DNA of 64,000 nt from a bacterium (GTDB taxonomy: Bacteria; Patescibacteriota; Minisyncoccia; Phycocordibacterales; UBA9973), in NCBI GenBank assembly GCA_027484965.1, contig JAIXRY010000008.1:1069-65068 (forward strand), read 5' to 3'. The notes beneath the pieces were generated by a model. It saw nothing but the letters and a program-made list of their open reading frames with translations. It ran no database searches and was not told the DNA's origin. Below, one piece after another: positions 1-49,092 of the stretch. The position numbers and the translations under genes were made by a program. How positions within the stretch are numbered: position 1 is the stretch's first letter; every line of letters starts with the position of its first letter.

Positions 1-717
1 TTTACTAAATAAATAAATACCAACACCCAATAAAATAACAAAAAGGCCTACAAGTATAATATGATTTGAAAGTGTATCACTTATCCAAATAACAAATTTT
101 GTTGAAGTTGGAAGTTCTGCGCCTATATCTTTGAAAGTTTTTGTTAGAGTTGGAACAACAAAAATAAACATAAGTATAGCAATAAGAATAATTGCAGAAA
201 TAATAATTGCTGGATACATCAATGCGCCTTTTATTTTTTTATTCAAAAGATATGTTTTTTCAATACTTTGCCCAATTTCAGTAAGAGCACCTACCATTCC
301 TCCAGACTCTTCTCCTGCACGAACCATAGAAATAAATAGGGTTGAAAAAACTTTTGGAAATTTCTCCATTGAAGTAGAGAATGTACTACCCCCAGAAATA
401 TCATTAACTATTTTCGAAAGAATGCCTTTAAATATTTGATTGTTTGTTTGACGTTCAAGAATTGCAAGTGCTCGAGCAAGAGCAATACCAGCAGAAAGCA
501 TTCCTGCAAGGTTTTTTGTAAACATTATTTTTTCAGCAAGACCAACACCACTCCCAAAAGAAAAATAAAATGGTTTTTTAGTTCCAATAGCTTTTAGATT
601 TAAAAGCGTTTTTCCTTCAGCACGCAACTGTTTTGAAAGGCTAAATTTATCAGGAGCTTCAATAGTTCCTTTTTCTTTTGAGCCGTCTGATTTTATTGCT
701 TCATATGAAAATTTCAT
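1..717 (-). CDS. pilC: Type IV pilus / T2SS platform protein PilC/GspF family, partial (3' end runs off the window start)
   Basis: Minus-strand frame missing from the ORF track. Manual translation from ATG at 717 gives MKFSYEAIKSDGSKEKGTIEAPDKFSLSKQLRAEGKTLLNLKAIGTKKPFYF...GISMVRAGEESGGM...ALMYPAIIISAIIIIAILMF, typical of the first GspF domain. It lies directly downstream of pilB. Confidence 0.75.
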   Translation of the reverse strand, partial: MKFSYEAIKSDGSKEKGTIEAPDKFSLSKQLRAEGKTLLNLKAIGTKKPFYFSFGSGVGLAEKIMFTKNLAGMLSAGIALARALAILERQTNNQIFKGILSKIVNDISGGSTFSTSMEKFPKVFSTLFISMVRAGEESGGMVGALTEIGQSIEKTYLLNKKIKGALMYPAIIISAIILIAILMFIFVVPTLTKTFKDIGAELPTSTKFVIWISDTLSNHIILVGLFVILLGVGIYLFSK

Positions 718-723: not shown

Positions 724-2478
724 TTATTCAGAAACAACGCGGAGAACTTCTTCTGTGGTTGTATATCCTTGCACAGCCAAAAATATTCCATCTTCAAGCA
801 TGGTTGTCATACCTTCTTTTTTTGCTTGAATTTCTATAGCGTCAGCAGAAGCACCTGAAATAATAAGATCTTTTATTGTTGGTGTTACTTTAAGTACTTC
901 ATGGATACCAACACGTCCTCTATACCCATCTTCCGTATCCGCACTTTTCATTGGTTTGTAAAAAGGGACGTCTTTCCATTCTGCGTCTGGCGCAATTACA
1001 TTTTCATCTTTCAAAACCTTCATCATTCTATCTAAATCAACTATCTTCCCTAACGCTTTCAATTCATTCTCATTCATAAAATACTTTTCTTTTGAATCAG
1101 AAAGTCTTCTGACTAGACGCTGTGCAATAACTGTTTTCAAAGTTGAAACCAAAAGAAATGGTTCTGCACCCATATCAATAAAACGTGGTATAGCGCCCGC
1201 CGCTGAATTAGTGTGAATTGTTGATAACACTAAGTGACCAGTAAGTGCTGCATTAATAGCAAGTGAAGCTGTTTCTCCGTCACGGATTTCACCAACCATT
1301 ATAATATTAGGATCTTGACGAAGAAGTGCACGGAGACCATTTGAGAAAGTCATTCCTATATCAGAACGAACTTGTGTTTGATTAATACGAGCCATTTGAT
1401 ATTCAATAGGATCTTCAACTGTTGAAATGTTTACATCTGGAGTATTCAACATATCAAGCATTGTATAGAGGGTTGTTGTTTTACCGGACCCTGTCGGACC
1501 AGACGCAAGAATCATTCCTGTGTGGAGTTTCATTGCTTCATGAATACGCTCAAGTGCATCTCCATGAAATCCTAATTTCTCAAGAGAAAATCCTTTTGCA
1601 TTTTCACGCAAAATACGAATAACTGTTTTTTCTCCAAAATATGTTGGGATTGTAGAAACACGAAAAGAAACTTTTTGATCGTCATTTGAAATTTTGAAAC
1701 GTCCGTCTTGAGGAAGACGTTTTTCATCAAGTTTCAAATTTGAGAGAACTTTAATACGAGCAACAATACCAGAAGCAGAGTCTTTTGGAAGCACCATGGC
1801 GTCACGCAATATTCCATCAATACGATAACGCACAACAAGAGACTCTTCTAAAGGTTCAATATGGATATCTGATGCTTCTTGTAAAATAGCATGTGAAATA
1901 AGAGTATCTACAATTTTTACAATTGGTAAATCTTCAGCAAGTTGCTTGAGTTCTGCTTCAGAAGCAGGTTCTTTATTGTTTTCTAGAGCTGTTGCTTTTA
2001 TTGATATTGTTTCCTTTTGGATAATATCATCAAATTCTGCTCTAAGACTTTTTTTATAAAGAGTGAGTGCATGTTTGATAGAAGGAACATCTGTAAGACG
2101 TGGGAGAATTTTTTGCTCTAATTTCTTTTTTAAGAAATCTATTGTTGATATATCATTAATATCAAGCATCGCAACTTCAATAGTAGTGCTTGTTTTTTTG
2201 TACGCTACAACATTATGATTTCTCGCAATAGGTTCAGGTATAAGAGAAAGAACATCAGCTTCTATTTTTTCATCAATAAGTGATACAAAAGGAACACCGA
2301 GAACATACGCTTGAGCTCGACGTAGATCTGTCTCTGAAATTTTATTTTCTGAAACAAGAATATCGGTAAAAGGAGTTCTCTTTTCTTTAGACATTTCTAC
2401 GGCGCGAGAAATATCTGCCGATGTAACAACACCAGCATCAATAAGAAATGTTTTTAAACTTTCTTCACTAATTACCAT
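724..2478 (-). CDS. pilB: Type IV pilus assembly / T2SS ATPase PilB/GspE family
   Basis: Walker A GPTGSGKTTTLY, an N-terminal GspE-N-like region, and a conserved EDPIEYQ / hexameric secretion ATPase core. Confidence 0.9.
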   Translation of the reverse strand: MVISEESLKTFLIDAGVVTSADISRAVEMSKEKRTPFTDILVSENKISETDLRRAQAYVLGVPFVSLIDEKIEADVLSLIPEPIARNHNVVAYKKTSTTIEVAMLDINDISTIDFLKKKLEQKILPRLTDVPSIKHALTLYKKSLRAEFDDIIQKETISIKATALENNKEPASEAELKQLAEDLPIVKIVDTLISHAILQEASDIHIEPLEESLVVRYRIDGILRDAMVLPKDSASGIVARIKVLSNLKLDEKRLPQDGRFKISNDDQKVSFRVSTIPTYFGEKTVIRILRENAKGFSLEKLGFHGDALERIHEAMKLHTGMILASGPTGSGKTTTLYTMLDMLNTPDVNISTVEDPIEYQMARINQTQVRSDIGMTFSNGLRALLRQDPNIIMVGEIRDGETASLAINAALTGHLVLSTIHTNSAAGAIPRFIDMGAEPFLLVSTLKTVIAQRLVRRLSDSKEKYFMNENELKALGKIVDLDRMMKVLKDENVIAPDAEWKDVPFYKPMKSADTEDGYRGRVGIHEVLKVTPTIKDLIISGASADAIEIQAKKEGMTTMLEDGIFLAVQGYTTTEEVLRVVSE

Positions 2479-2697: not shown

Positions 2698-4017
2698 TTA
2701 ATAAGTAATTTTTACTCTTCCATTACCACCAGAACCATTAGTTACTCCAGAAACAGTTGTCCCTCTTGTACCTCCTTGTCCTATAGTGTATGTGAATTGC
2801 TCATTTGGTGTTACAGGTAAAGTTATTTTTATATAACCACCAGCACCTCCACCGCGAGCTGTATTAATTTGAGTGCTTCCAGGTAATCCTACACGTATTT
2901 GTGTAGACTCTTCACCTGAACAGTAATCCCTTCCTGGATTTGTCACTAAATAATAAGGACATACTTGTGATGGTCCTTGGAAAGTACCAGAACTACCAGA
3001 CCCATAGAATCCATAATTACCTGTTCCTCCACCAGGTGTACTTCCTCCTCCACCAGGAATAGCGCCGTTTGCACTCTGGAATACTCCGTTTTGAATATTT
3101 GCTGGATTTGAATTTCCATAAAAATTTGGAGCTGCTGGAATAAGACTACAGTATTGTTGTGCATCGCTCAAACTTGCTGCTTTTCTACCAGCTGTTATTG
3201 TTTGAACACCTAAATATGAAGCTCCTCCAATAGCACCATCTCCTCCATCAGAACCATATCTGAAAAAATATGGATTTGATGGACAATTATAATCTCCAAT
3301 AAGTTGATCTAGTTGATTATATGCTGGAACTCCACCATTTCCACCTGTATGTATTTCTGATACTAAAGATGTAGAGCGGCCACCAGAGACACTTGCCGAA
3401 CCTCCAGTACCATTTCCTCCAGAATTTGCATTTGTACCAGCATTTGCAGTAACTGAAATATTTGTTCCTTGGAATACTGTATTTGTTGGAGAAGTTTGAG
3501 AGTTTGAAGAAATATTTGTATATCCTGCACCCCCAGCTCCCCAAACTTCAACAGTAACACTATTAACACCTGTTGGAACAGTCCACGAACCACTAGTATC
3601 AAAAATACGCACATTAGTATTTATTGGACAAATATTTAGTTGGCCAGTACTAGAGACACAGACTTTCTGAGGTGTTGTAGTTGATGATACACCAGAAAGA
3701 CTAACACTTTTTGTACTTAAATTACCTGTAATAGCTGTATTTCCTTCTGAAGTAATACCTTTTGTGTACAAAGAACCAAAGATATCTAGCTTAGCACCAG
3801 CTGTTGGGAACATAAGAGATGAATTACCAAGTAAAACTGATCCTATCCTAGAATCTATAGAATCACCAGTATTCCAAACAGATATTTGACCATTTGGATA
3901 TCCTCCAGATGGTCTGGCAGCAAACAATTCAACATAATTAACAACAATCACAAGTACAAGTATTGCTGAAAATAATTTTATAAAAGGTAAGTATTTTTTC
4001 ATATATATTATGGACAA
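2698..4017 (-). CDS. Secreted Gly/Ser/Thr-rich orphan protein with N-terminal signal anchor; carries the Cys-x9-Cys-Pro module internally
   Basis: N-terminal hydrophobic segment (alternative start at MKKYLPF, 4002). Low-complexity G/S/T/N-rich sequence. Internal motif ...SLSGVSSTTTPQKVCVSSTGQLNICP shared with the next two genes. Confidence 0.5.
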   Translation of the reverse strand: MSIIYMKKYLPFIKLFSAILVLVIVVNYVELFAARPSGGYPNGQISVWNTGDSIDSRIGSVLLGNSSLMFPTAGAKLDIFGSLYTKGITSEGNTAITGNLSTKSVSLSGVSSTTTPQKVCVSSTGQLNICPINTNVRIFDTSGSWTVPTGVNSVTVEVWGAGGAGYTNISSNSQTSPTNTVFQGTNISVTANAGTNANSGGNGTGGSASVSGGRSTSLVSEIHTGGNGGVPAYNQLDQLIGDYNCPSNPYFFRYGSDGGDGAIGGASYLGVQTITAGRKAASLSDAQQYCSLIPAAPNFYGNSNPANIQNGVFQSANGAIPGGGGSTPGGGTGNYGFYGSGSSGTFQGPSQVCPYYLVTNPGRDYCSGEESTQIRVGLPGSTQINTARGGGAGGYIKITLPVTPNEQFTYTIGQGGTRGTTVSGVTNGSGGNGRVKITY

Positions 4018-4382
4018 ACAATAAATTTACCAGAACTATTGACACACAACTCTCTATTTGATGAACCAGATAATTTTGAAACAGTCATATTTGTTGTATC
4101 AAAATTATAGTTATTTTGTGTATTTGCAGGAACAACTAGACCTTTAGTAAAGAGAGTTCCATTAATATCTAGAACGACTCCAGAGGTTGGAGCATTTGTC
4201 ATACCCACTGCAAGAGAAGCGTTTCTAGATAAATCATTTGTTGATTTAGTAATAAAAACATTAAAAGGTTGTGAAGCTTGACTATAAGAGGACGGTCTTG
4301 TTGCTTTCGCACCTATTATATTTGCAAAAAAGATAATAACAAGACAAACAAAAAATAAATTTACTATTGAATATTGTTTCAT
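4008..4382 (-). CDS. Small secreted orphan protein ending in SGSSNRELCVNSSGKFIVCP
   Basis: Signal peptide. C-terminal Cys-x9-Cys-Pro module paralogous to the neighbouring genes. Confidence 0.5.
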   Translation of the reverse strand: MKQYSIVNLFFVCLVIIFFANIIGAKATRPSSYSQASQPFNVFITKSTNDLSRNASLAVGMTNAPTSGVVLDINGTLFTKGLVVPANTQNNYNFDTTNMTVSKLSGSSNRELCVNSSGKFIVCP

Positions 4383-4386: not shown

Positions 4387-4923
4387 TTATGGGCAAATAG
4401 TTAATGAGTTAATAGTAAAATTAAACATTGTATTATTTTGAACAATACAGACATTTCTATTGCCAGACCCAGCAAAGTCTGTAACAGTAACATCACCATC
4501 CGTACTTGAATTAGTTGTCTTTGATATTGTTGTTGTACCTGAAACAAAAGTTATACCATCTATTAACAACCCATCACTTTTACCATTAGCAGGAAGATTA
4601 AGAGAGCCCGCTTTTGTAATTCCATTTACATGAACTGTTTCTCCAAGTCTTGGAGGTGTCATGAAAGTCTGAACACCATTATAAAAAGGTTCAGAATTTA
4701 CACCTATAGCTATAGCTCTTCTCACAACATCAGCAGATGTTCTATTTGCTGGCGCTTCACCTAATTTACTTTGCGCTACAGTCGAACCTAATCCAGACCT
4801 GATAAGTTCTGGAGGTTGTCCACCTGGAGGTGTTTGTGTTGGAGCAGCGTAAGAAACACCTAACACAGAGAGAATTACAAAACTAACTATAACGACTGAC
4901 TCTTTTAGTGAAAAATATATCAT
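4387..4923 (-). CDS. Secreted orphan protein ending in AGSGNRNVCIVQNNTMFNFTINSLTICP
   Basis: Sec-type signal peptide. Conserved TKG...SG.S.R.LCV..CP-type C-terminal module. Confidence 0.5.
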   Translation of the reverse strand: MIYFSLKESVVIVSFVILSVLGVSYAAPTQTPPGGQPPELIRSGLGSTVAQSKLGEAPANRTSADVVRRAIAIGVNSEPFYNGVQTFMTPPRLGETVHVNGITKAGSLNLPANGKSDGLLIDGITFVSGTTTISKTTNSSTDGDVTVTDFAGSGNRNVCIVQNNTMFNFTINSLTICP

Positions 4924-4924: not shown

Positions 4925-7024
4925 TTACTCTTCTTTATAAAATGGGGCTGGTAAAATATTTGTTCCGAAACGCCACAACAATCTTCCTCCTCTACCTGTA
5001 AGTGGATTAGTCACAATAAATAATCCAGGCTCAACACCTTTAATTCCAACAATAGTTGACGCTGTTACAGTTTTTCCAGAAGGTGTTTTACATTCAATAG
5101 TAAACATTTCTGATGTTGAACCTATAGAAACTGTTTCTACTCCTGACAATGATTTTCCACCTGTCCAGACTCCAGTAGCCCCAGCAGTACCTCCTGCAGC
5201 AGAACTAAATCCAGTAGAAGCAACACAATTACTTGCATTTTCACCATCCCAACGTAGTAGTGTTGTAGAATTTGGATCTACTACTTGTGGAAACGCTGAA
5301 AGTCTCAAACCTGAAGCATTAACTCCTCCTGTAATATCTCCACCAGTAACACCAACTCCAACAGAACCACCACCTGGACCAATTCCGCCAGCGCCTCCTC
5401 CTCCAGAACCAGTAACAACAGAAACATCTTCACTACTTGTAACTGTTTGACTCGTTGAACTATTTGTACAAGTAATAGTAAATGTTCTAGTTGAAGTTCC
5501 TGATCCTACATTTACATTAGTTGAACCAGAGGTTGCTTTTGAACCAGTCCAACCAGATATTGACGCATTATTACTTGCCGCACAAGTAAACCCTGTAAGA
5601 TTTTGAGATGTCCAAGAAATATTAATATTACTATTTTCTCCAGTAATTGAAGGACTTGCGTTTAGTGAAACACTAGGTATTAATGGAGAACCAGTTCCAC
5701 CAGTACCTCCACCGCCGCCAACAGTACAAGAAATAACATTGTATGAAATTGGAGAATTATAACGTACTGAAACTGATCCTGATCTTGAAACAGAACCACT
5801 ACCACTTCCTTGAAGAACACCATTCAAAGTACAAACACCTGAAGGGACTTGTGCAAGAGGAGTTACATCAAAATATGTCGAGTGTGTTTCAGCTCCGTCA
5901 GTAGTTACAACTTGAACACGATGATTGCCTGAACCAGCAACAAGGTCGCGTGGAATTGTCATTCTAATAACAAAGCTTCCTCCTATGTTAAGACTCAAGA
6001 ATCTAGGATCATAAGGATTAACTGTGTCGTTAGGGTCTGGTTGTGCTTGTGGCACAGCAACACCATTATATAAAAGACTAAATGTTGAACCTGCAAGCGC
6101 TGGATCTGAAGTACCTATAGCTGTATATAGAGTCTTTGTGGTTGGATTTCCATAAATAGTAAGAGGTATATCAAAAGAAACATTAGCTCCACCTTCCACA
6201 AAAGACGCAGGGTAAGGAACACTTATATCGAACCAAGGAATTGGAGTTCCTGAAAGGATTGAGACTGTAGCACTACTTGTAACAGTCTGACTGGTTGAAC
6301 TGTTTGTACAAGTAATAGTGTATATTTTTGTAACTGAACCTGGACCAACATTCACTACAGCTGTACCAGAAGTTGCTTTTGAACCAGTCCAATCAAGAAG
6401 AGATGCATTATTACTTGCTACACAAGTAAATCCTACAAGATTTTGAGATGTCCAAGTAAGATTAAGATTACTATTTGGAAAAATAGATGTTGGAGTTGCT
6501 GTTAAAGAAACACTAGGAACTTGTTGTGTACCTATACCTACACCAGTAAAATCTATCCAACCAATAGTATTATTCCAGGCATATCCATAAAAATTATTAT
6601 TTCCTCCTCCAACAATCTGAACACCGCTTAGATCAATACATCCATTGCTACCTAATGAAATAATTTTAGCTGGACCTAAAAGTCCAGGACTTGCAACAAG
6701 TCTTGGACTTCCATTATTACAACTCGCAATATCTGACGGTTCAAAAGAAATCCACCCAACATTGTCATTCCACGCATAACCAGAAAATATGTATGCGCCA
6801 GCATTATTATCTACATAAGTGACACCATAATTTGTACCCACACAACTAGAAGGTGATGTTGTTGAACAGTTATTAAACGAAATCCATCCAATAGCATCAT
6901 TCCATGCATATCCAAGAATTTTATCTCCCGCACTTGATAAGGCCTGATTTGGAGTATAAAAATTAAAGGCAAATAAGAAAATAAGCGTTCCGAGAGATGA
7001 AAAAATTATGTTTTTTATTTTCAT
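4925..7024 (-). CDS. Large secreted repeat protein (699 aa): three N-terminal GYAWND-IGWISF motifs and two Ig-like Cys-containing ~70-aa repeats
   Basis: Signal peptide. GYAWNDAIGWISF, GYAWNDNVGWISF and GYAWNNTIGWIDF motifs. Near-identical ~70-aa repeats (WTSQNL.GFTC.ASNNAS..WTGSKATSG...FTITCTNSSTSQTVTSS), also repeated at DNA level (5432-5640 and 6272-6480). Confidence 0.55.
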   Translation of the reverse strand: MKIKNIIFSSLGTLIFLFAFNFYTPNQALSSAGDKILGYAWNDAIGWISFNNCSTTSPSSCVGTNYGVTYVDNNAGAYIFSGYAWNDNVGWISFEPSDIASCNNGSPRLVASPGLLGPAKIISLGSNGCIDLSGVQIVGGGNNNFYGYAWNNTIGWIDFTGVGIGTQQVPSVSLTATPTSIFPNSNLNLTWTSQNLVGFTCVASNNASLLDWTGSKATSGTAVVNVGPGSVTKIYTITCTNSSTSQTVTSSATVSILSGTPIPWFDISVPYPASFVEGGANVSFDIPLTIYGNPTTKTLYTAIGTSDPALAGSTFSLLYNGVAVPQAQPDPNDTVNPYDPRFLSLNIGGSFVIRMTIPRDLVAGSGNHRVQVVTTDGAETHSTYFDVTPLAQVPSGVCTLNGVLQGSGSGSVSRSGSVSVRYNSPISYNVISCTVGGGGGTGGTGSPLIPSVSLNASPSITGENSNINISWTSQNLTGFTCAASNNASISGWTGSKATSGSTNVNVGSGTSTRTFTITCTNSSTSQTVTSSEDVSVVTGSGGGGAGGIGPGGGSVGVGVTGGDITGGVNASGLRLSAFPQVVDPNSTTLLRWDGENASNCVASTGFSSAAGGTAGATGVWTGGKSLSGVETVSIGSTSEMFTIECKTPSGKTVTASTIVGIKGVEPGLFIVTNPLTGRGGRLLWRFGTNILPAPFYKEE
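5432..5640. repeat. Intragenic ~210-bp direct repeat (copy 2 at 6272-6480) encoding the Ig-like Cys module
   Basis: Long near-identical stretches such as agttgcttttgaaccagtccaa and attattacttgc...cacaagtaaa...agattttgagatgtccaag. Confidence 0.8.
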
Positions 7025-7026: not shown

Positions 7027-7356
7027 TTATTGATTCTTTAAAAATTGATTAACAAGATCTTCGTCTGCTGTTTTAGATTCTTCAGGTGAAACAGTGGCAG
7101 ACTCTTGTTTATTAAGAGTTTCTAGCATTTTTTGTTTTTCTTCATCAGTAGTTGATATTGATGCAGCTTTTTGTGCAACAGCCTCGACACTCTTCTCTAT
7201 TTGAGTTTGTTTTGGTTTTTGATTTTTTTTATAAATCAAAAAAATAGTTACAAGAACCACAAGAACAATAATTCCAGAAATAATAAGTGAGAGTGTTTTT
7301 TTGCTCATATATAGACGGTAAGCAAAAGATGTAGGTTCTTTGTGTATTGGATCCAT
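7027..7356 (-). CDS. Small single-pass membrane protein (first gene of the minus-strand operon)
   Basis: Hydrophobic helix LSLIISGIIVLVVLVTIFLIY. Alternative start at MSKKTL (7308). No prepilin G/FTLIE motif. Confidence 0.4.
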   Translation of the reverse strand: MDPIHKEPTSFAYRLYMSKKTLSLIISGIIVLVVLVTIFLIYKKNQKPKQTQIEKSVEAVAQKAASISTTDEEKQKMLETLNKQESATVSPEESKTADEDLVNQFLKNQ

Positions 7357-18799: not shown

Positions 18800-18877
18800 G
18801 GTCGGGGTGCCGGGATTCGAACCCGGAGTCACTTGTACCCAAAACAAGCATGTTAGCCGTTACACCACACCCCGACT
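18800..18877 (-). tRNA. tRNA-Pro (anticodon UGG)
   Basis: Minus-strand cloverleaf: acceptor GUCGGGG/CCCCGAC, anticodon arm CUUGU-UUUGGGU-ACAAG, T-loop GGGUUCGAAUCCC. No encoded CCA. Confidence 0.8.
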
Positions 18878-18916
18878 CACTTCTCACTAAAAACATTTAA
18901 TATATAAAGAACTTAC

Positions 18917-18954
18917 CCCAAAACAAGTATGTTAGCCGTTACACCACACCCCGA
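18917..18954 (-). repeat. 38-bp direct duplicate (1 mismatch) of the 5' half of tRNA-Pro
   Basis: cccaaaacaagTatgttagccgttacaccacaccccga versus the tRNA copy at 18838-18875 (C instead of T). Confidence 0.8.
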
Positions 18955-19046
18955 ATACTAAACAATCTAGTACAAGAAGTATATTAACATAAACTTCATT
19001 ATAAATCCATATAAAAAACCAGTACCTTTAATTAAAAGTACTGGTT

Positions 19047-19280
19047 CTATTTTCTACACAATAAATAATTTGATTGATAAGACTTATCAGAAAAAGTATT
19101 CATTATTGAAGCTTTTTCTGAAAGTCTTTTTTGACCTTCTTCGGAAGATTCTCTTACAATAAAAGCCTTTGATTTTGAAGTAAGATTAATTTCTATTATG
19201 TCCTTAGAAGTATCTACTTCTAAGGTATCAATAGCTTCTTTTATAGCCTTTTCTGTGTTTTGTGAAAATTTGATTGACAT
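19047..19280 (-). CDS. Orphan small protein (77 aa)
   Basis: Clean ORF between tRNA-Pro and the kinase-like gene. Confidence 0.3.
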   Translation of the reverse strand: MSIKFSQNTEKAIKEAIDTLEVDTSKDIIEINLTSKSKAFIVRESSEEGQKRLSEKASIMNTFSDKSYQSNYLLCRK

Positions 19281-19313
19281 ATTTTTGTTTTTTATAATTA
19301 TAGCTTATAAGTA

Positions 19314-20072
19314 TTAATCTGTCAAACTTTTAACACCTCTCATCATCTTTTCTAAATCTCTAACCCAAGATTCGTCAGATTTAAAAGTAACAATAGTCTT
19401 CTCTCTTCTACCAGTTATTTCATCTTTTATATACATTTCTTCTGGTTTATAAGGATTATCATCAACCAAAACTCTTTCAAAAGACCTTCCAAAATCGATA
19501 ACGGCAGGGTTTCCTGTTTCATTATCAATCATTACATTCCCAGCATGCAAATCTCTATGATAAATACCATTTTTATTGATATTTGAAATAAAATTATTTA
19601 ATAAGGAGAAAAATCTATCATGGTCGTAGTTTTCTGGAAGTTTTTCTCTGTGAGTACAGACATAAGCTATAGTATTACCATAAACCTCATCCATAACTAA
19701 AACCTGTCTAGAACCCCTCTTACCATCACCTTTATCTACTCCTCTAGCCTTAATAGAAGCTATAGGTTCTGGAACAAAGACACTATCATCTATATCTCTA
19801 ACTTTCTCCATAAAACTCATTTCAATTTCAGTGTCGTGATCAAGAAATCCTTGCCTGTCTACAACTTTATAACAAAAGCCTGCATTTTTTTGATCATCTC
19901 TAAAAACATCAGCTGATTTACCTGTACCAAGTTCATTTTGTTTAATAAATAACTCTTCAGCAAGATCACACAATCTATCTTCGAAATCTTCAGTATGAAG
20001 TTCCGGATATCTTTTCTCTACTTTTTCTGGGTGTTTAAGTAGAACATCAAAATTTGGATGTCTTTCAGTCAT
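19314..20072 (-). CDS. Protein-kinase-like fold phosphotransferase (APH / atypical kinase-like)
   Basis: Catalytic-loop-like GIYHRDLHAGNVMID and metal-binding AVIDFG motifs. The ORF-track N-terminus (to 20201) reads through tRNA-Gly and is rejected; start placed at MTERHP (20072; alternative 20090). Confidence 0.55.
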   Translation of the reverse strand: MTERHPNFDVLLKHPEKVEKRYPELHTEDFEDRLCDLAEELFIKQNELGTGKSADVFRDDQKNAGFCYKVVDRQGFLDHDTEIEMSFMEKVRDIDDSVFVPEPIASIKARGVDKGDGKRGSRQVLVMDEVYGNTIAYVCTHREKLPENYDHDRFFSLLNNFISNINKNGIYHRDLHAGNVMIDNETGNPAVIDFGRSFERVLVDDNPYKPEEMYIKDEITGRREKTIVTFKSDESWVRDLEKMMRGVKSLTD

Positions 20073-20129
20073 ATAAAAATAATAGCACATATTTACTATA
20101 TTAATAAAATTTGCTAATATATATCCATT

Positions 20130-20200
20130 GCGGGATTGGTTTAGTGGTAGAATGTCTGCCTTCCAAGCAGAAGACAAGAGTTCGATTCTCTTATCCCGCA
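20130..20200 (+). tRNA. tRNA-Gly (anticodon UCC)
   Basis: 71-nt cloverleaf: GCGGGAU acceptor, anticodon arm UCUGC-CUUCCAA-GCAGA, T-arm AGAGUUCGAUUCUCU. Confidence 0.85.
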
Positions 20201-20232
20201 CAGAAAAAATAGCCCGAAAGGGCTATTTTTGC
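20201..20232 (+). terminator. Intrinsic terminator after tRNA-Gly, embedded in a 10-bp inverted repeat with the tRNA 3' end
   Basis: aaaaatagcccgaaagggctattttt flanked by cttatcccgc...gcgggataag. Confidence 0.65.
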
Positions 20233-20239
20233 GGGATAA

Positions 20240-20620
20240 GCAAGTTTATACTCGACAGTACGATGAGTCATCGACTGCTTTACTTGCGTAGAGATGAGAA
20301 CGCCGGAACAATATTATATCAGCAGATAATTGTGAGGCGGTGCCCAGACAAATTCGGAGCGACGGCGAGAATTTAGTCGCGGGCGATTCTCATATAAGAA
20401 TAAGAGAAAAAGTATATTTTTGTTTAAGCAAAGCGGAAGGCAAAAATACCAAACCGGGCCGTCCACAGGTGTCTATCTATCCCCTTAATAGACCGCAAAG
20501 TCTTAGAATAAAGTGAGAAGTTACCGAGTCGAACTCCCATTAAAAATAAAAACTCCCATTAAATAGGAGTTCACATTACAATAAAAAAATAAGAGACATC
20601 GTAAGTTTTTAACCTGGTCA
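20240..20620. ncRNA. Unassigned GC-rich non-coding region; candidate structured RNA (identity and strand unknown)
   Basis: About 370 nt with markedly higher GC than the flanks. No credible ORF; the only ORFs overlap the tRNA or are AT-rich junk. Adjacent to a tRNA. No RNase P (AGGAAAGUCC) or SRP signature found by eye. Confidence 0.3.
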
Positions 20621-20634
20621 ATATATTGAAAAAA

Positions 20635-21078
20635 TTATTTTTCTATAACAACAGTTTCGTTAATACTTACAAAATCAAAAAGTTCAATCACGCTCTGATT
20701 TGCCATTCGTGTACAACCATGACTTACTTGCTTACCAAGATCATTTTCATGATTAGTTCCATGTATGTAAATAAAACGTTCTTTAGTGTTTTTATTTTGT
20801 TCATCAAGACCGTGAAGCCACATAACTCGTGTCAAAACAAGATCTTCAGCAACAGAAGAAGTATCCCAAATACCGATTGGTTTTCTACCTTTAAATATAG
20901 TATTTATAGGTAAATCTAATCCTATTTTTTGAAAAACTAAAAAATTACCATAAGGCGTTTTTTCACTACCAAATTCAAAACCAGTCCCATATTTTGATGT
21001 CGAAATTGGCCAATCCTTAATAACTGTATTATCTATATAATACAGAAGCCTTTGCTCTGATATTAAAATTTTTATCAT
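20635..21078 (-). CDS. L,D-transpeptidase (YkuD-like catalytic domain)
   Basis: IYIHGTNHENDLGKQVSHGCTRM motif (catalytic His...Ser-His-Gly-Cys). Confidence 0.75.
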   Translation of the reverse strand: MIKILISEQRLLYYIDNTVIKDWPISTSKYGTGFEFGSEKTPYGNFLVFQKIGLDLPINTIFKGRKPIGIWDTSSVAEDLVLTRVMWLHGLDEQNKNTKERFIYIHGTNHENDLGKQVSHGCTRMANQSVIELFDFVSINETVVIEK

Positions 21079-21143
21079 ATTTATTTTTTTATATTTATAA
21101 ATACAATATCATTTTATCAATATAGTGTAAAATTATAGCTTAC

Positions 21144-21545
21144 TTACACAAAACTCTCAAAAACCTCTACTTTCCCCTTCTTTTGGTCTGTATCTATAAA
21201 TACCACCAACAAATCGCATTGCCATAGTTTATTCTCATCTATATGTTTCTCAAGCAAATACAGTTGCGTTGTCTTGAGAAACCTTTTAATCTTCTTCTCA
21301 TGCAAATTTTCTACTGGATTATAAACTGTTTCTCCCCTATTATTTTCAATAAAATTTCGTCTTATAGATTTTACCTCAACAAAATGAATAATGTTGTCTT
21401 TTTCAGCTACAATATCAACTTCTCCAAAGAATGTAGAGAAATTTGATTCTAAGATAGTAAAGCCATGTTTCATGAGAAACATAGAGGCAAGTTTTTCACC
21501 TATTTCCCCTACTTTCTGAGTTTTTGAAGTAAAAACCTTCATCAA
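21144..21545 (-). CDS. yraN: YraN family (UPF0102) PD-(D/E)xK endonuclease-like protein
   Basis: GEIGEKLASMFLMKHGFTIL...GEVDIVAEKDNIIHFVEVKSIRR pattern typical of YraN. Confidence 0.6.
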   Translation of the reverse strand: MMKVFTSKTQKVGEIGEKLASMFLMKHGFTILESNFSTFFGEVDIVAEKDNIIHFVEVKSIRRNFIENNRGETVYNPVENLHEKKIKRFLKTTQLYLLEKHIDENKLWQCDLLVVFIDTDQKKGKVEVFESFV

Positions 21546-21866
21546 GATAAGTATATAATAATCAAATAACAGAATATAGTTTATATATGTTACATGTGTA
21601 ACTAATTACTACAAAACATCTCTTATATTTAGAGATTAAAATATAGATATTTGTTTCAGGTGAAACAAATATGAGCTGTTTTACAATAAAATGTGTATTT
21701 TTTAATTTCTAGCACGTGAAACATATATACATCACCTATTGTCTATTATTTAATATGACTTTTCAAAAATACTTATATTTTGTAATACTATTTTAGTTTT
21801 TCAGACATTAAAAATTATGTTTGACCGATTGTAAAAAGTCGTCTCTTATAAACACTATACACAGAG

Positions 21867-21875
21867 TTATCCACA
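21867..21875 (+). promoter_or_regulatory. Consensus DnaA box TTATCCACA outside oriC (with an adjacent degenerate box TATACACAG)
   Basis: Exact 9-mer. The shared 11-mer cacagagttat also occurs in the dnaA-dnaN spacer. Confidence 0.4.
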
Positions 21876-21997
21876 GTTTTGTTAAAAAATAAGGATAACT
21901 AGACCATAAAGTACTCATGTCTCCAAAAATAAAAAGACTGTCTTATTTTGAAATTAAGTGTGTACTTAAATGATCAACTATGCAATAATAGTTCTAC

Positions 21998-22069
21998 GCA
22001 CTTATGGTGAAATGGATATCACAGCGGTCTTCGGAACCGTTATTCTGGGTTCGAATCCTGGTAAGTGCA
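21998..22069 (+). tRNA. tRNA-Arg (anticodon UCG)
   Basis: 72-nt cloverleaf: acceptor GCACUUA/UAAGUGC, anticodon arm GCGGU-CUUCGGA-ACCGU, T-arm CUGGGUUCGAAUCCUGG. Confidence 0.8.
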
Positions 22070-22131
22070 CAAAGATTATATTTGCATTTTTTTGTACATA
22101 TGGATATAATTATCAATACCAATCTATATAA

Positions 22132-22202
22132 GCGGGATTGGTTTAGTGGTAAAATACGTCCTTGCCAAGGATGAGTCAAGAGTTCGATTCTCTTATCCCG
22201 CA
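22132..22202 (+). tRNA. tRNA-Gly (anticodon GCC)
   Basis: Same acceptor, D and T arms as the UCC isoacceptor; anticodon arm CGUCC-UUGCCAA-GGAUG. Confidence 0.85.
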
Positions 22203-22226
22203 CAGATTAGGGTAACCAAGTTTCAT

Positions 22227-39409: not shown

Positions 39410-40318
39410 ATGAATATAGAAAAATACAGACAATATCTTCCTAGTAAAAAATTCCAAAAAATACTTGGAAGTATAGTAATTGTTATTGTGGTAATAATAC
39501 TAATAAGCCTTGTAGGGTCTGGTAAAATACATATTACACAAAAACAAAAAGAACAAGCTGTTATTCAAAAAATGACTTTGAGTGAACTTGTTCAAAAAGA
39601 CACAGACAATGATGGCTCACCTGATTGGGAAGAAGGTCTTTTTGGTACAGATCCAAAACAACCAATTTCTAACAAACAAGGAATTCCTGATGGTGAATAT
39701 ATAAACAATCAAAAAAAGGCACAAGGAGGAGGTGATACTTCTAACTTAACAGAAACAGATAAAGCTGCTCAAGATTTCTTTATTGCCATCGAAGCATTAA
39801 AACAATCAGACAATCTTACTCCAACAGCTTTATATAACATAACTTCAAGCATATCTCAGACAATTCTTTCTGAAAAACTTCCAGAAACATATGCTTTTAG
39901 TGATGTAAAAACCACTGAAAATAATAAACAAAATCAGAAAAAATACATGACTGATTTTAAGAAAATACACAGTGATGCAATCAAAAAAGGACTTGGAAAA
40001 GAATTGGGCGTATTTATGCAAGCACTAGGTGAAGGGAATAGAGACCAGCTAGCGAGTCTTTCGAAATATGCAGATATTTACAAAAACATGTCTGTACAAT
40101 TAAAAAACATCCAGACCCCAGAAGACTTATCAACAAATCATTATTTGCTCATAAACCATTACGAGAGAATTGGAATTTCTCTGAATAATATTTCAGAATC
40201 TTTTGAAAATCCAACAAAAGGAATGATTGGTGTCGCTGGATATAAAAAATGGACTGAAGAATCAAATACAGTATTAAAAGATATTCAAGATTTATTTAAA
40301 CAATATGGTATACTATAA
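39410..40318 (+). CDS. Membrane-anchored secreted protein with a TSP3-like Ca-binding aspartate motif
   Basis: N-terminal helix; DTDNDGSPDWEEGLFGTDP...IPDGEY motif. Confidence 0.4.
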   Translation: MNIEKYRQYLPSKKFQKILGSIVIVIVVIILISLVGSGKIHITQKQKEQAVIQKMTLSELVQKDTDNDGSPDWEEGLFGTDPKQPISNKQGIPDGEYINNQKKAQGGGDTSNLTETDKAAQDFFIAIEALKQSDNLTPTALYNITSSISQTILSEKLPETYAFSDVKTTENNKQNQKKYMTDFKKIHSDAIKKGLGKELGVFMQALGEGNRDQLASLSKYADIYKNMSVQLKNIQTPEDLSTNHYLLINHYERIGISLNNISESFENPTKGMIGVAGYKKWTEESNTVLKDIQDLFKQYGIL

Positions 40319-42557: not shown

Positions 42558-42561
42558 ATAT

Positions 42562-44664
42562 ATGTATAACGATCGTCGTAAAAAAATAATAAGAATTTCA
42601 TTAATTGTTCTAGGTATAATTATAATTGTTCTTATTTATTTATTTATAAAAAGCAAACAACAAACAGAAACAACGGGAAATAAAGGAAACTTTTTTCTAG
42701 ATCTTGGAAGTCTTATTACAGGTAAAAGACAAAACCCTAACGGTGTCTCTCTAACTCCAAATGGGAATGGCCTAGGTGGTAGCAATGGAAGTGGTAATGG
42801 GAACGGTAGCAATAATGGAAGTGGTAATGGGAACGGTAGCGGATCACCACTTGTTTTGGGGGGTCTACCAGAACCGACACCTATAGCTCAAAATATTGGT
42901 GGAGGTTTCGGAACAAACAACAGAGACTTATTCCCTGATAATCAAAATCCTAATAACTGTATTGGATGTAGTGGTTCTTTTGGTATAGGAAACGGCGACT
43001 TAGGAAGTGGAGGAGGTTCAGGAAACAGTGGTTTAGGTGGTGATGGATTGGGCGATGATGGTTTAGGTGGTGATGGATTGGGCGATGATGGTTTAGGTGG
43101 TGATGGATTGGGCGATGTGTCTAGTTATGTATATATAAATGCTGTCCCAAGTGCTATACACAAAGACGATGAAGTTACTGTTACTTGGGAATCTTCTAAT
43201 GTGAATACTTGTTTTGCAAGTTCATTCCCTGTAGTACCAGGATGGAATGGCTCAACAGGTAAATCAGGGACTAAATATTTTTCTCTAAATAAACCTACGA
43301 CTTTTATCATTAAATGTTCAACAACAAGTGGTACAGTTCAGGCTTCTGACTCTGTTTCAGTACTCGCAGATGATGTACCTTTGTGTAAAGAGGACAATAC
43401 TTGTTTTCTAGGAGATAGTGAAACAGGCAAGTATGTATCTGCCGTTATGGAAGCAAGTCCATACATTGTCGAGTCTGGTGATACGAGTTTGCTTGCATGG
43501 GACACAGAGAACGCTACCATGTGTAATGCAAACAGTGTTCCTCTGCGAGATGACTGGAGAGGATTAATACCTCAGAGTTCAGGAGAAACAGATATTACAC
43601 TTCCAAGTACACCTGTTACATATATACTTACATGTACAGACGGGAAGACTACAGGTCAAACAGATGTAACAATTTCAATAGACACATCAAAAATAGATGA
43701 CGGACGAGACTTTGGTGACGATCCTATAGATCTGTGTAGCAGGTCAGAACAAGAAAGAAATCCTCTTTGTTTAGTAAGAGATATTTCTATAGATGAAGAA
43801 GAGAAGATCCTCATTCTAACAAACGAAGAACAAGCCATTCTTGACTCTCTCATGAAAGAAGTTGCTATTATGTCTCCAACACTTCCTTCAAACCAAACGT
43901 CTTCTAGTCTTGATATTTCAACACAGACGTACAGAGCAATATTGAGCGACATAGAAAAAAATGTTAGTACTTGTTATGACCTCACACAAAATACATCAAA
44001 AAATCAAGATTTTATCGATGCTCTTTGGGAAAGGCAGATAGTAGGGAGAAGACCTTTACCATTTCTAGGGAACAGAAATCCAATATTTGAAATACCAATA
44101 AATCCTGGAGCAACAACATACATATATAAAAGCAAGGATGGTAGCACCACAGAAATAAAAATACCTAAAAACTTACAAATAGCAAGTGGAGGTAGTAAAG
44201 GTAGTTTTAAAATACCCATAATACCAGAAACAAGTACATATACATATACAGACCCAGTAAGAGGAGATAAGACAATAATACAAATACCAAAAGAACTACA
44301 AAATCCTATTCTTCAAAACATATCAATATATTTACAAAATCTATATCCAGTTAAGCCACCTTCTGCAAAATTACTCAAAAAATATTATGATTTTGCACGT
44401 TCACCTGGAAATACTTGGAGAGCTACAGAACTAGGAGAAGGAGAGAGAGATTGTCCAGGGCGCCGCATTACAACAACATACAAAAACGACATCCAAGGCA
44501 CTTTCATTTTCCCTTGGCTTGGAGATGGTTGTTGGTATATGAACTCATATAAGACAAATGAAGATGATGCACAAAAAGGTATATATGATCTTGTTCCAGG
44601 ATACGGACGTATGCAAGAGCAAGTAGAGTATGGATCAGACACAAAAGGAATAAAAATATTCTAA
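42562..44664 (+). CDS. Large secreted protein with low-complexity GN/GS and GDGLGD tandem-repeat linker and two Ig-like Cys-containing domains
   Basis: N-terminal helix. Tandem 27/30-bp DNA repeats (42781-42840, 43031-43117). Domains VTVTWESSNVNTCFASS...FIIKCSTTSG and LLAWDTENATMCNANS...YILTCTDGKT match the repeat family in the 4925-7024 protein. Confidence 0.5.
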   Translation: MYNDRRKKIIRISLIVLGIIIIVLIYLFIKSKQQTETTGNKGNFFLDLGSLITGKRQNPNGVSLTPNGNGLGGSNGSGNGNGSNNGSGNGNGSGSPLVLGGLPEPTPIAQNIGGGFGTNNRDLFPDNQNPNNCIGCSGSFGIGNGDLGSGGGSGNSGLGGDGLGDDGLGGDGLGDDGLGGDGLGDVSSYVYINAVPSAIHKDDEVTVTWESSNVNTCFASSFPVVPGWNGSTGKSGTKYFSLNKPTTFIIKCSTTSGTVQASDSVSVLADDVPLCKEDNTCFLGDSETGKYVSAVMEASPYIVESGDTSLLAWDTENATMCNANSVPLRDDWRGLIPQSSGETDITLPSTPVTYILTCTDGKTTGQTDVTISIDTSKIDDGRDFGDDPIDLCSRSEQERNPLCLVRDISIDEEEKILILTNEEQAILDSLMKEVAIMSPTLPSNQTSSSLDISTQTYRAILSDIEKNVSTCYDLTQNTSKNQDFIDALWERQIVGRRPLPFLGNRNPIFEIPINPGATTYIYKSKDGSTTEIKIPKNLQIASGGSKGSFKIPIIPETSTYTYTDPVRGDKTIIQIPKELQNPILQNISIYLQNLYPVKPPSAKLLKKYYDFARSPGNTWRATELGEGERDCPGRRITTTYKNDIQGTFIFPWLGDGCWYMNSYKTNEDDAQKGIYDLVPGYGRMQEQVEYGSDTKGIKIF
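43031..43117. repeat. Tandem 30-bp repeat (ggtttaggtggtgatggattgggcgatgat, ~2.9 copies) encoding GDGLGDDGLG
   Basis: Direct inspection. A second 27-bp tandem pair at 42781-42840 encodes NGSGNGNGS. Confidence 0.85.
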
Positions 44665-44700
44665 AACTAAAAGAAGTCCCGAAGGACTTCTTTTAGTTTT
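44665..44700 (+). terminator. Intrinsic terminator
   Basis: aaaagaagtcccgaaggacttcttttag. Confidence 0.7.
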
Positions 44701-44782
44701 AGAAACTATTATTTATACACAGATATATTATCTTACTATATATATTTATTTTTAAAAGAGGGTGGTATACTTATAGTATTAC

Positions 44783-47716: not shown

Positions 47717-47718
47717 TT

Positions 47719-48402
47719 ATGGATAATATTCAAGAAAAAGAAATCCCATACGAACTTTTTAAAGCAGTTGAAAAAATTGACTATAATTTAGTATTAAAAA
47801 ACATTGCAGATAACCACGATTTACACATCAATCAGAGTGCTTTACTTGATCGATCTTTAAAAGAGTATATATTCGGAGATATTGATGCAGATACTTTTGA
47901 AGCCAGTCTTGCAAGTATTACAAATAACAACAAAGAAGATTTTAAAAAACTTTTAGATGATGTAAACTCTAAGATAATCGAACCTGTAAGGGATATGTTT
48001 TTGGAATTAACAGTTAGAAAAGAAATTTTATTTTCAGATGATGATTTTGAAGACACAAACAGTACCGCTTCTATCGAAGAAATTGATCATCAAGCCTTAT
48101 ACGACGCAGGAATAGAAATAGAAGGATTTGTACCAAAGGCTCCTGAGAGGAAATATGGTGAGGAAATATTTCCAAATGAAGATCTTAGTGTTCATGAAAA
48201 AATGCTTAGTGAAGAATTGACAAAGATAAAACCTAAGGAGGTTTTGGAAATACCAAAGAAGCCAGAAATAATTCCTCAAAACTTTATGGAACAAAAATTG
48301 GGTGGGGTAGTAAGAAACACTTCAAGCAATAGCGACCAATCACTTCCATCAATAGCAAAAAAAGAAGTAGAAAAATTCGATCCTTACAGAGAAAAAGTGT
48401 AA
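47719..48402 (+). CDS. Orphan acidic cytoplasmic protein (227 aa), translationally coupled to the VirB6-like gene
   Basis: Start 3 nt after the upstream stop. Confidence 0.35.
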   Translation: MDNIQEKEIPYELFKAVEKIDYNLVLKNIADNHDLHINQSALLDRSLKEYIFGDIDADTFEASLASITNNNKEDFKKLLDDVNSKIIEPVRDMFLELTVRKEILFSDDDFEDTNSTASIEEIDHQALYDAGIEIEGFVPKAPERKYGEEIFPNEDLSVHEKMLSEELTKIKPKEVLEIPKKPEIIPQNFMEQKLGGVVRNTSSNSDQSLPSIAKKEVEKFDPYREKV

Positions 48403-48436
48403 ATAGTAAAAAGAGATTAGTTACTAAAAACATAGA

Positions 48437-48487
48437 AAATACAAGAGCGGGACCCGAAGGGTCCCGCTCTTGTATTTATTTTTTAGT
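48437..48487. terminator. Bidirectional intrinsic terminator
   Basis: aaaatacaagagcgggacccgaagggtcccgctcttgtattt. The core gcgggacccgaagggtcccgc is identical to the terminator at 11384. Confidence 0.75.
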
Positions 48488-48510
48488 TGCTTGGTAGTAG
48501 TTACTGTGCA

Positions 48511-48927
48511 TTATTTTCCTTGGTTGTTCATATCAAGCACATCAAGACTCCATGCCAAATCTTTTAATTTACTACCTGACAGCTTTGGTTGAGAAGAAAC
48601 AATATTTGTATTTTTGACTTCAACAGTCTTAACCTCTTTTACTTCTTTCTTGGTTTTTTGCCAGATATAAAGCTTACTTTGAAATAAATAACTTATATAA
48701 GCTCTGAGTATATATTCAAAAGGTTTTTCATTTACTTTATAAAATACAAGAAGGAGTGAGAGTATAACTATAAAAATAGCAAAAGGAACCCCAATAATAA
48801 TAGGGAGCAGTCTTAGAGAGACGTAAGTCATCCCAGCGCCACCCACAAGATAGACAAATTCTTTAAACGTAAAAGGACCAAATATTTTGTCTTCTATATC
48901 AATAAATTGAGGTACTTTGAATTGCAT
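48511..48927 (-). CDS. PrgI/VirB3-like small two-helix membrane protein
   Basis: N-terminus MQFKVPQFIDIEDKIFGPFTFKEFVYLVGGAGMTYV resembles the PrgI-family pattern (VP.d...edKi.G.lt.rQ..yl..g), followed by two hydrophobic helices. Confidence 0.45.
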   Translation of the reverse strand: MQFKVPQFIDIEDKIFGPFTFKEFVYLVGGAGMTYVSLRLLPIIIGVPFAIFIVILSLLLVFYKVNEKPFEYILRAYISYLFQSKLYIWQKTKKEVKEVKTVEVKNTNIVSSQPKLSGSKLKDLAWSLDVLDMNNQGK

Positions 48928-49092
48928 ATAATATAGTATATAGCGAATAACCGACAGTGGAAAGGGAATATTATATTTAGTCGCACTTGCTCACATTTTA
49001 AAAGACACAATACAATATAATTCTGATAAATTAAACATTAAGGCGCGACAAGATTTCGAAAAACCGTATATTCACTAGTTAGTAACAACTAG

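Follow-up and report, generated by a model that had tools for sequence, protein, structure and literature searches.

A glycine-tryptophan hairpin module on an exported protein of a Patescibacterial type IV pilus operon

Patescibacteria account for a large share of bacterial diversity, and the cultivated ones live attached to host cells. We know of little that explains how they recognise and hold these hosts, and type IV pili are their best-supported attachment device. Candidate pilus adhesins have so far been proposed for one Saccharibacterium only (PMC11623550). Here we analysed a window of 64,000 nucleotides (nt) from a bacterium of the Patescibacteriota (contig JAIXRY010000008.1 of assembly GCA_027484965.1; the window is this whole stretch, with ~35% G+C) and looked into a minus-strand gene at 4925..7024 encoding an exported, modular protein of 699 amino acids (aa). 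An earlier reading of the same DNA (the original prediction) had singled this gene out. Its product has a head without a match in Pfam, NCBIfam, the PDB or BFVD, and the context of such proteins is frequently, though not universally, a pilus operon.

Layout of the protein and its four-hairpin module

The reading frame predicted at 4925-7024 is real: the list of open reading frames (ORFs) gives it as an ATG-initiated frame of 699 aa on the minus strand. An identical NCBI protein (P0001) has four orthologues (P0002-P0005), which are 79, 57, 55 and 52% identical and 570-595 aa long. The protein is laid out as follows; Ig stands for immunoglobulin, and model confidences (pLDDT, predicted local distance difference test) are those of AlphaFold2 (AF2).

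4925..7024, minus strand: whole gene (signal peptide, four-hairpin module, Ig-like 1, middle domain, Gly linker, Ig-like 2, Gly linker, Ig-like 3, C-terminal tail)
6935..7024, minus strand: Sec-type signal peptide, aa 1-30 (MKIK, 19 hydrophobic residues, ALS↓SAG; AF2 helix at 2-23)
6530..6931, minus strand: N-terminal module, aa 32-165, ~135 aa, all-beta, four hairpins (three canonical, one degenerate)
6239..6517, minus strand: Ig-like copy 1, aa 170-262 (C201...C239; seven strands, pLDDT ~85-94), orthologous to the copy in all relatives
5681..6238, minus strand: middle domain, aa 263-448, beta-rich, ending in a small Cys398...Cys433 unit
5342..5680, minus strand: lineage-specific insertion, aa ~449-561, 113 aa (Gly linker, Ig-like copy 2, Gly linker)
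inside 5342..5680, minus strand: Ig-like copy 2, aa 450-542 (C481...C519), in the lineage-specific insertion
5021..5326, minus strand: Ig-like copy 3, aa 567-668 (C600...C645; pLDDT ~85-93 except in the loop at aa 607-617)
4928..5020, minus strand: conserved basic tail, aa 669-699, ending ...GRLLWRFGTNILPAPFYKEE; the last 8 residues (4928-4951) fit P-x-[WFY]-x-E

The protein had also been called secreted. Its N-terminus does look like an export signal, from which we infer Sec-type cleavage, and the claim holds as far as a reading of the sequence carries it. The signal region contains neither the prepilin motif G-F-T-L-x-E nor a lipobox Cys. The protein was not recognised as a type IV pilin or pseudopilin, with no N_methyl match and a negative result for P0001 with the class III leader expression, the same expression that was positive for P0033, P0046 and P0049. 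The LPXTG-type pattern [LIVS]P.[TASG]G matched nowhere in the 699 residues, and there is no C-terminal hydrophobic segment. Scans of the protein, run alongside five operon neighbours, found no Pfam domain at E<0.1 and likewise nothing above threshold in NCBIfam. Foldseek matches of the full-length AF2 model were strings of Ig, FN3 and MG domains (E 3.5e-10 to 3e-7), namely, PTP-delta Ig-Fn, complement C3 MG domains, titin, GhpA and SbsB.

The head of the protein is built on a motif, GYAWN..GW[IV].F, that the original prediction had counted three times in the N-terminal region. All three canonical copies were confirmed, GYAWNDAIGWISF at aa 38-50, GYAWNDNVGWISF at aa 82-94 and GYAWNNTIGWIDF at aa 147-159 (DNA positions 6875-6913, 6743-6781 and 6548-6586), and they are visible in the DNA as a direct-repeat family of 3 copies of 43 nt. 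The number of hairpins nevertheless comes to four once a degenerate third is counted, which reads GPAKIISLGSNGCIDLS in the window protein and GWARAL..GWDGWI.LS in the family consensus. An alignment of 43 module regions (A1) defines an unnamed family whose members have G-[YWF]-A-W-x(3-4)-G-W-[IV]-x-F at hairpins 1, 2 and 4, a degenerate hairpin 3 and Y-G-V strands between them. In A1 the order is G-[YW]-A-W-S-x-N-[IV]-G-W-I-S-F, Y-G-V, the canonical hairpin 2, the degenerate hairpin 3, Y-G-V and hairpin 4. Residues 32-165 of the window protein align to A1 over their full length, with every invariant position in place (jackhmmer, E 8.5e-55). Across the 43 modules the invariant positions are only G, W or A, and none is polar. 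The window module is acidic (isoelectric point [pI], 4.05) and aromatic, with W, Y or F at 18/134 residues and 3 K+R in 134. The AF2 model computed from A1 is all-beta (pLDDT 88; predicted template modeling [TM] score, 0.84).

Searches of fold and domain databases with the module found no close counterpart. Foldseek returned nothing at E<0.9 in the PDB and nothing at E<0.37 in BFVD; the best TM scores, 0.47-0.49 (E>1), were to designed 8-stranded beta-barrels and one domain of 1jmx, which is a weak shape resemblance only. A sequence-profile search of the PDB with the module alignment gave no match, and none of the 43 copies reached threshold in Pfam or NCBIfam. Profiles for ChW, SLH, LysM and CW_binding repeats (including PF07538 and PF01473) matched 0/43 modules, the sole ChW trace being in P0053 (E 0.005, 17 bits versus a cut-off of 22). 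A full-text literature search for "GWISF" yielded no relevant paper.

The module is nonetheless common. When 5.8 billion proteins were searched with the window protein, 93 of 100 matches had the N-terminal region in common, and an HMMER search of 1.84 billion cluster representatives returned 9,217 at E<=1e-3, 6,907 at E<=1e-10 and 1,376 at E<=1e-30. A scan of one genome per species confirmed at least 542 module sites, the best 80 of which lie nearly all in Paceibacterota/Parcubacteria-type lineages and in bins labelled Saccharibacteria. Relatives with an organism name are all Patescibacteria except for three records labelled Spirochaetia, Bacteroidetes and Gammaproteobacteria, which are probable mis-bins. 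The module is the most conserved part of these proteins, and the rest of the architecture varies (PKD, FN3, Ig_Rha78A_N, DUF11 and CarboxypepD_reg). Six of 237 family proteins have a prepilin leader and carry the module internally or C-terminally, so that in these the module would be displayed on a pilin. These results indicate that the domain family marked by the N-terminal motifs is large and has no entry in either Pfam or NCBIfam.

Ig-like domains, their duplication and the T4SS-like locus

Next, we looked into the Ig-like units. The original prediction described a duplicated Ig-like domain with conserved Cys; the domain is real, and the protein has three copies of it rather than two. We built a hidden Markov model (HMM) from third-party copies alone (n=38) and scanned 129 ORF segments of the window with it. 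The three copies of the 699-aa protein were found at E 4e-20, 5e-16 and 1.6e-14, two copies in the protein encoded at 42562-44664 were found at E 1.7e-16 and 7.4e-13, and no further ORF matched. Copies 1 and 3 are predicted as seven-strand sandwiches (AF2 pLDDT 85-94), which places them in the Ig-like beta-sandwich class; copy 3 is 35-38% identical to copies 1 and 2. None of 43 Ig-like copies reached the threshold of a Pfam family, and the named bacterial Ig-like families (Big_1..13, PKD, Invasin_D3 and He_PIG) all stayed below the gathering threshold. The best trace was to Mannosidase_ig (E 0.12 at full length and 0.038 for copy 1 alone), followed by Ig_C17orf99 (E 0.45 and 0.083, respectively); further subthreshold traces among the 43 copies were to K319L-like_PKD (3), Big_9 (2), Big_3_5 (1) and Invasin_D3 (1). 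A PDB sequence-profile search with the Ig-like alignment gave no match. Among family-related proteins the domain is abundant, with 202 copies in 77/246 proteins and up to 9 in tandem; searching 5.8 billion proteins with the alignment returned 30 short proteins, which is uninformative on breadth and probably reflects the word and length pre-filter of the search. The Ig-like domain is thus a promiscuous Patescibacterial spacer or building block.

Selective constraint differed along the protein. The head and the middle domain have a ratio of nonsynonymous to synonymous divergence (dN/dS) of ~0.06-0.07, compared with 0.22-0.42, and hence weaker constraint, in the Ig-like units, which fits functional ends joined by spacers. 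The middle domain itself (AF2 pLDDT 50-78) is strongly constrained (dN 0.035, dS 0.527, dN/dS ~0.07) and is restricted to the five close orthologues P0001-P0005; by tblastn it was found in loci L001-L003 only.

Copy 2 of the Ig-like domain arose within this gene. The 113-aa segment that holds it is missing from all four orthologues, which have a single Gly-rich linker there, and copy 2 stands at a dS of 0.58 from the window's own copy 1, nearer than the 0.93 that separates it from copy 1 in the closest orthologue. The original prediction was therefore right about an intragenic duplication, and the direct repeat of ~210 bp that it reported is present in the DNA (5431-5692 versus 6271-6532; 262 nt, spacing 840 nt). 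It had further called the repeats near-identical and the event recent, and neither description fits. The identity is 76% over the direct repeat, 73% over the 279-nt domain and 66% in the protein (dN 0.24, dN/dS 0.42), and the dS between the copies is as large as that between the window gene and its 79%-identical orthologue (0.44-0.53). From the sequence comparison, the duplication is lineage-specific and appears to date from about the time at which this lineage and its nearest sampled relative separated. Nor did we find a tract of near-identity between the copies, as the suggested recombination would have it; ongoing recombination is thus unlikely, and repeat-mediated recombination or strain-to-strain variation in copy number is not to be expected. 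We also rejected an assembly artefact, since copy 2 keeps the reading frame, differs from copy 1 by 24-27% and has Gly linkers, not the flanks of copy 1, on either side, and there is no long identical tract.

The second protein with the Ig-like domain belongs to a cluster resembling a type IV secretion system (T4SS), whose features are as follows.

39410-56902, plus strand: T4SS-like cluster, typical of Patescibacteria
43126..43695, plus strand: two Ig-like Cys domains, aa 189-272 and 293-378, in the 700-aa membrane-anchored protein 42562-44664
49742-51751, plus strand: VirB4-like ATPase (TraG P-loop/AAA_10) of the cluster
53282-55606, plus strand: 774-aa protein of the cluster with a T4SS_pilin domain

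The original prediction was correct in that the Ig-like module occurs twice in this protein, and the profile similarity between the two proteins is significant, the third-party HMM finding both at E <=7.4e-13. It went on to propose that the shared module links the pilus and T4SS-like loci. In favour of some connection, the domain occurs within the window in these two proteins only, and both are narrow-clade proteins found together in at least one other genome (P0005 and P0283, taken as the same record). Against it, the copies in one protein share only 24-35% identity with those in the other, the domain is generic, and both Ig-like copies of the T4SS-locus protein are conserved in six of six orthologues; these copies are old, without recent exchange. 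Because the domain is a common spacer, sharing it is no evidence for a functional connection between the loci.

Relative to its six orthologues (568-739 aa), the 42562-44664 protein has extra low-complexity GDGLG/GNGSG repeats at aa ~70-185 and an insertion at aa ~505-570 with two ~30-aa repeats, PINPGATTYIYKSKDGSTTEIKIPKNLQ and PIIPETSTYTYTDPVRGDKTIIQIPKELQ. Taken with the insertion in the 699-aa protein, this indicates that both surface proteins gained lineage-specific insertions. The large cluster proteins at 40305-42557, 44783-47716 and 55631-56902 had no Pfam match. A survey of Patescibacterial T4SSs found no adhesins in these systems (PMC12102498), and the Ig-bearing membrane protein may for that reason deserve a separate look.

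Operon, pilus context and the C-terminal ending

The 699-aa gene is the second in a minus-strand gene string running from 7356 to 1, with gaps of 1-4 nt except for 219 nt before pilB, that ends in PilB and PilC. The other members of the string are given here.

7027..7356, minus strand: 109-aa single-pass membrane protein; stop 2 nt before the start of the 699-aa gene
4387-4923, minus strand: exported protein, 178 aa (signal peptide, C-terminal C-x(5-12)-C-P motif)
4008-4382, minus strand: exported protein, 124 aa (signal peptide, C-terminal C-x(5-12)-C-P motif)
2698-4002/4017, minus strand: exported protein, 434-439 aa (signal peptide, C-x(5-12)-C-P motif at about aa 120-131)
724..2478, minus strand: PilB/GspE-type assembly ATPase, 89% identical to the L001 gene carrying MshEN and T2SSE
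1..717, minus strand: PilC (T2SSF platform protein), N-terminal 225 aa; 84% identical by tblastn to aa 1-225 of the L001 PilC; runs off the window start

At the orthologous loci L001 and L084 the gene order is the same and continues with three prepilin-like genes (leaders G↓FTFMET, G↓FSLIEV and G↓STIIEV; N_methyl weak or faint) and a PilX-like protein of ~590 aa, whose counterpart in the window operon lies past the window's left edge. The three exported-protein genes are also present in these two loci, and other loci have, in the same position, analogous exported proteins with the mature N-terminus AAWTGPT.APP.GN. A 105-123-aa counterpart of the small membrane protein holds the same position in L001, L007, L009, L010, L011, L016, L018, L081, L084 and L086; this protein may be a dedicated partner or anchor. 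At L080, the gene for the small membrane protein comes after the module gene, not before it.

We then counted neighbours at the best 80 of the at least 542 module sites, chosen by the module alone. Within 10 kb, PilB was present in 20/80 loci and PilC in 18/80; we also found a same-strand downstream PilB in 14 of the 41 loci having at least 8 kb downstream and any type IV pilus marker in 26/75. A nearby nusA, mostly divergent and just upstream, was seen in 27/80. Two layouts recurred. In the first, nusA, the small transmembrane protein, the module protein and one to three AAWTGPT.APP.GN exported proteins are followed by PilB, PilC and prepilins; in the second, RNase Y and a two-component pair stand between the module gene and PilB. 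Of four more distant family members, two (P0019 and P0045) are encoded next to pilus genes, one (L086) retains the cassette but lacks PilB, and one (L088) is away from any pilus gene. The gene for P0019 lies within a complete pilMO-pilB-pilT-pilC-pilins-pilD cluster, immediately upstream of three prepilin genes and a PilX-like gene (a PilY1-like position), and this locus has a second, PilT-sized T2SSE ATPase and PilD. The gene for P0045 is upstream of PilB and PilC.

The C-terminus provides a second connection to the pilus genes. The last ~45 residues are nearly invariant among the five orthologues, and the window protein ends in LPAPFYKEE. We counted endings with [WFY]-x-E within the last eight residues and, in a stricter version, with a preceding Pro; the window protein satisfies both expressions. 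The looser ending was found in 127/237 family proteins (~54%) and 45/72 module ORFs, versus 39/875 control ORFs (4.5%), and the stricter one in 112/237 and 39/72, versus 3/875. Typical family endings are RPPWxEI, LPLPEWKEIxPF and PIFEEF. Among the three Pro-containing control matches is the L001 PilX-like protein. The PilX/GspK-like last gene of such operons encodes 425-760 aa with a hydrophobic, pilin-like N-terminus and an end of the form ...SGPSG...SW.E[ITV], and 7/7 complete ones end in SW.E[ITV] or GW.E[TV], at the following positions.

L001 18789-20558, L007 9440-11305, L010 15557-16876 and L011 17278-18555: PilX-like genes with a W-x-E ending
L018 18054-19826, L080 8974-10767 and L081 8663-10945: PilX-like genes with a W-x-E ending

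None of the six pilin-fused family members has the W-x-E ending. With either a pilin helix or a W-x-E tail at one end, the module is always distal to the presumed attachment end. A full-text literature search for a Patescibacterial C-terminal sorting motif yielded no relevant paper.

Several further observations concern the surroundings of the gene. The 434-439-aa exported protein has a borderline match to Gly_rich_2 (PF21722; E 6.7e-5, 23.4 bits versus a cut-off of 24.3). The listed TTG start of its gene (MSIIYMKKYLPF..., 2698-4017) overlaps the upstream gene by 10 nt; translation probably begins at the ATG at 4002 instead, because the orthologues start at the methionine of MKKY... (434 aa in L084). 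A long ORF antisense to pilC is conserved, with a similar translation, in the window (131-439, plus strand) and in L001 (16102-16665, minus strand); it is most likely no gene but a side effect of the low-GC coding strand. Window genes adjoining the 699-aa gene are nusA and those for pyrophosphatase and trigger factor. Nothing relevant to the 699-aa gene came out of scans of the window for promoters and terminators, tRNAs and Rfam families; four tRNA genes lie at 18800-22203 (Pro-TGG, Gly-TCC, Arg-TCG and Gly-GCC), and no other Rfam family reached threshold in the window.

Candidate role and alternatives

We compared the window protein with known systems. PilY1 of Pseudomonas and Myxococcus and PilX1/PilX2 of Nanosynbacter lyticus TM7x are large non-pilin pilus-operon proteins presented at the tip (PMC7541494; PMC11623550). 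The adhesins proposed for the TM7x pilus are large proteins of the pilus locus that lack a PilD signal and have lectin-like folds (PMC11623550). Like these proteins, the window protein is large, exported, free of a prepilin leader and encoded in a pilus operon; the gene of its relative P0019 resembles pilY1 in standing directly upstream of minor pilins, and the probable binding head has a Patescibacterial precedent in lectin-like pilus-locus proteins. Unlike PilY1, it has neither a vWA domain nor the C-terminal PilY1/PilC beta-propeller of Pfam Neisseria_PilC (Pfam was negative, and AF2 shows Ig-like sandwiches). It has instead a head of four G-W hairpins without a PDB match, an Ig-like stalk and the P-x-W-x-E ending, with a presumed attachment to the pilus.

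PilB and PilC of Streptococcus sanguinis are modular type IV pilins with grafted adhesive modules (PMC8179133). The six family members with a prepilin leader, an FN3 or other stalk and a GYAW module are of the same kind, but the window protein, with a Sec-type signal and no pilin N-terminal helix, is not a pilin. It also resembles Gram-positive adhesins of the MSCRAMM-like, Big- and PKD-domain types in its signal peptide, N-terminal head, tandem Ig-like stalk, Gly-rich linkers and variable repeat number, and it differs from them in lacking LPXTG or another known sorting signal and in an Ig-like unit (conserved Cys pair and W) that reaches no Pfam family threshold. With ChW, choline-binding CW_binding_1 and GW modules, the head shares short hairpin repeats with invariant Gly and Trp on exported proteins; unlike them, it is a fixed set of four hairpins predicted to be compact and closed, not an open solenoid.

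With moderate confidence, we interpret the 699-aa protein as a Sec-exported modular surface protein, adhesin-like, that works with the type IV pilus of its own operon. The acidic, aromatic-rich head would bind a ligand, most likely a carbohydrate or something of the cell-wall type; the Ig-like units would be spacers that set the reach of the head; and the C-terminal tail would dock the protein to the cell or to a complex of minor pilins and the PilX-like protein. In the window lineage, duplication of copy 1 into a linker added one extra Ig-like unit. The role would be equivalent to that of PilY1 in proteobacteria or to that proposed for PilX1/PilX2 in Saccharibacteria, i.e., a large non-pilin adhesin on the pilus. 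That the head probably binds a glycan or cell-wall component is suggested by its acidic, aromatic composition (pI 4.05) together with the lectin-like precedent in TM7x (PMC11623550). The restriction of invariant positions to G, W and A, with no polar residue among them, and a pI of ~4 argue against an enzyme and against DNA binding. An enzymatic role of the head is unlikely, as no polar residue is invariant, and so is a DNA-binding (competence receptor) head, given a pI of ~4 and just 3 K+R in 134 residues.

A bolder version of this interpretation is speculative, and we regard it as rather doubtful. The module and the P-x-W-x-E ending would together be an undescribed, Patescibacteria-wide way of arming type IV pili, in which cargo docks via a C-terminal strand on a PilX-like/minor-pilin tip and a conserved glycan- or cell-wall-binding head of new fold serves as the episymbionts' primary host-catching device.

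A number of points weigh against a role on the pilus. About two-thirds of the module loci have no pilus gene within reach; L086 keeps the cassette of nusA, small transmembrane protein, module protein and three exported proteins, followed by EF-Tu in the place of PilB, and around L088 there is no pilus gene. Since nusA adjoins 27/80 loci, part of the pilus synteny may be inherited order and not function, and the loci are phylogenetically related, so that the counts are not independent. The ending of the window protein, F-Y-K-E-E, fits the motif loosely, PPW.EI and LPEWKEI.PF being the commoner forms, and it is purely by inference that we have the tail docking to a pilus tip complex or to the envelope. 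The fold searches offered no structural analogue that would point to a ligand. Finally, host-specific adhesins usually diversify, so that a head under such strong conservation is less typical of them and would also fit anchoring.

Some of these points favour the main rival explanation, in which the protein belongs to the envelope independently of any pilus, the module anchors it to the cell's own envelope in the manner of SLH, ChW, GW or choline-binding repeats, the string of Ig, PKD and FN3 domains faces outward and the pilB synteny is inherited. A module that is the most conserved part of a phylum-wide family of otherwise variable architecture shows the usual pattern of an anchor domain; nusA adjacency is about as frequent as PilB adjacency, loci such as L086 and L088 lack nearby pilus genes, and the aromatic G-W hairpins recall cell-wall-binding repeats, including the one ChW match below the cut-off (E 0.005). 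However, in six members the module lies distal to a prepilin leader, a position that makes little sense for an anchor to the cell's own wall, none of the 43 modules matched ChW, SLH, LysM or CW_binding, the C-terminal motif is common to PilX-like pilus proteins, and P0019 is encoded directly in a minor-pilin operon. We consider this explanation rather unlikely on balance.

It is improbable that the operon encodes a machine like those of type II secretion (type II secretion system [T2SS]) or competence, with the 699-aa protein and the three small exported proteins as released substrates or accessory factors rather than pilus-attached adhesins. Such a machine would account for the ATPase, the platform protein and the short minor-pilin-like genes, for the lack of a major pilin in the readable part of the operon and for the Sec-type signals, which T2SS substrates also have. 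The loci read (L001 and L084), however, have no secretin or outer-membrane component, the P0019 locus with its PilT-sized second ATPase and PilD is typical of retractile pili, fusions of pilin and module exist, and the conserved C-terminal tail suggests retention, not release. A monoderm-like envelope would need no T2SS. Patescibacteria are generally regarded as monoderm-like, to go by the title of a paper on their T4SSs (PMC12102498).

The view taken in the original prediction, that recent duplication or recombination generates variation in repeat number and that the Ig-like module functionally ties the pilus and T4SS-like loci, has an equally slim chance: the duplication is real, but the "recent" and "link" parts are largely refuted by the divergence of the copies and the generic nature of the domain.

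The duplication and the shared Ig-like domain are thus ordinary features of modular surface proteins. More informative are features that the original prediction missed, namely, the module family, the membership in an operon with PilB and PilC and the conserved C-terminal motif. More than 9,000 clusters belong to the domain family that the module defines; this family has neither a model in Pfam or NCBIfam nor a PDB fold match, and it recurs at pilus operons and on pilins. A short C-terminal signature is common to module proteins and the operon's PilX-like protein. Defining the module would improve the annotation of thousands of "hypothetical" proteins, and it gives testable candidates for pilus-presented adhesins across Paceibacteria-type lineages. 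The module family probably helps Patescibacteria attach to something.

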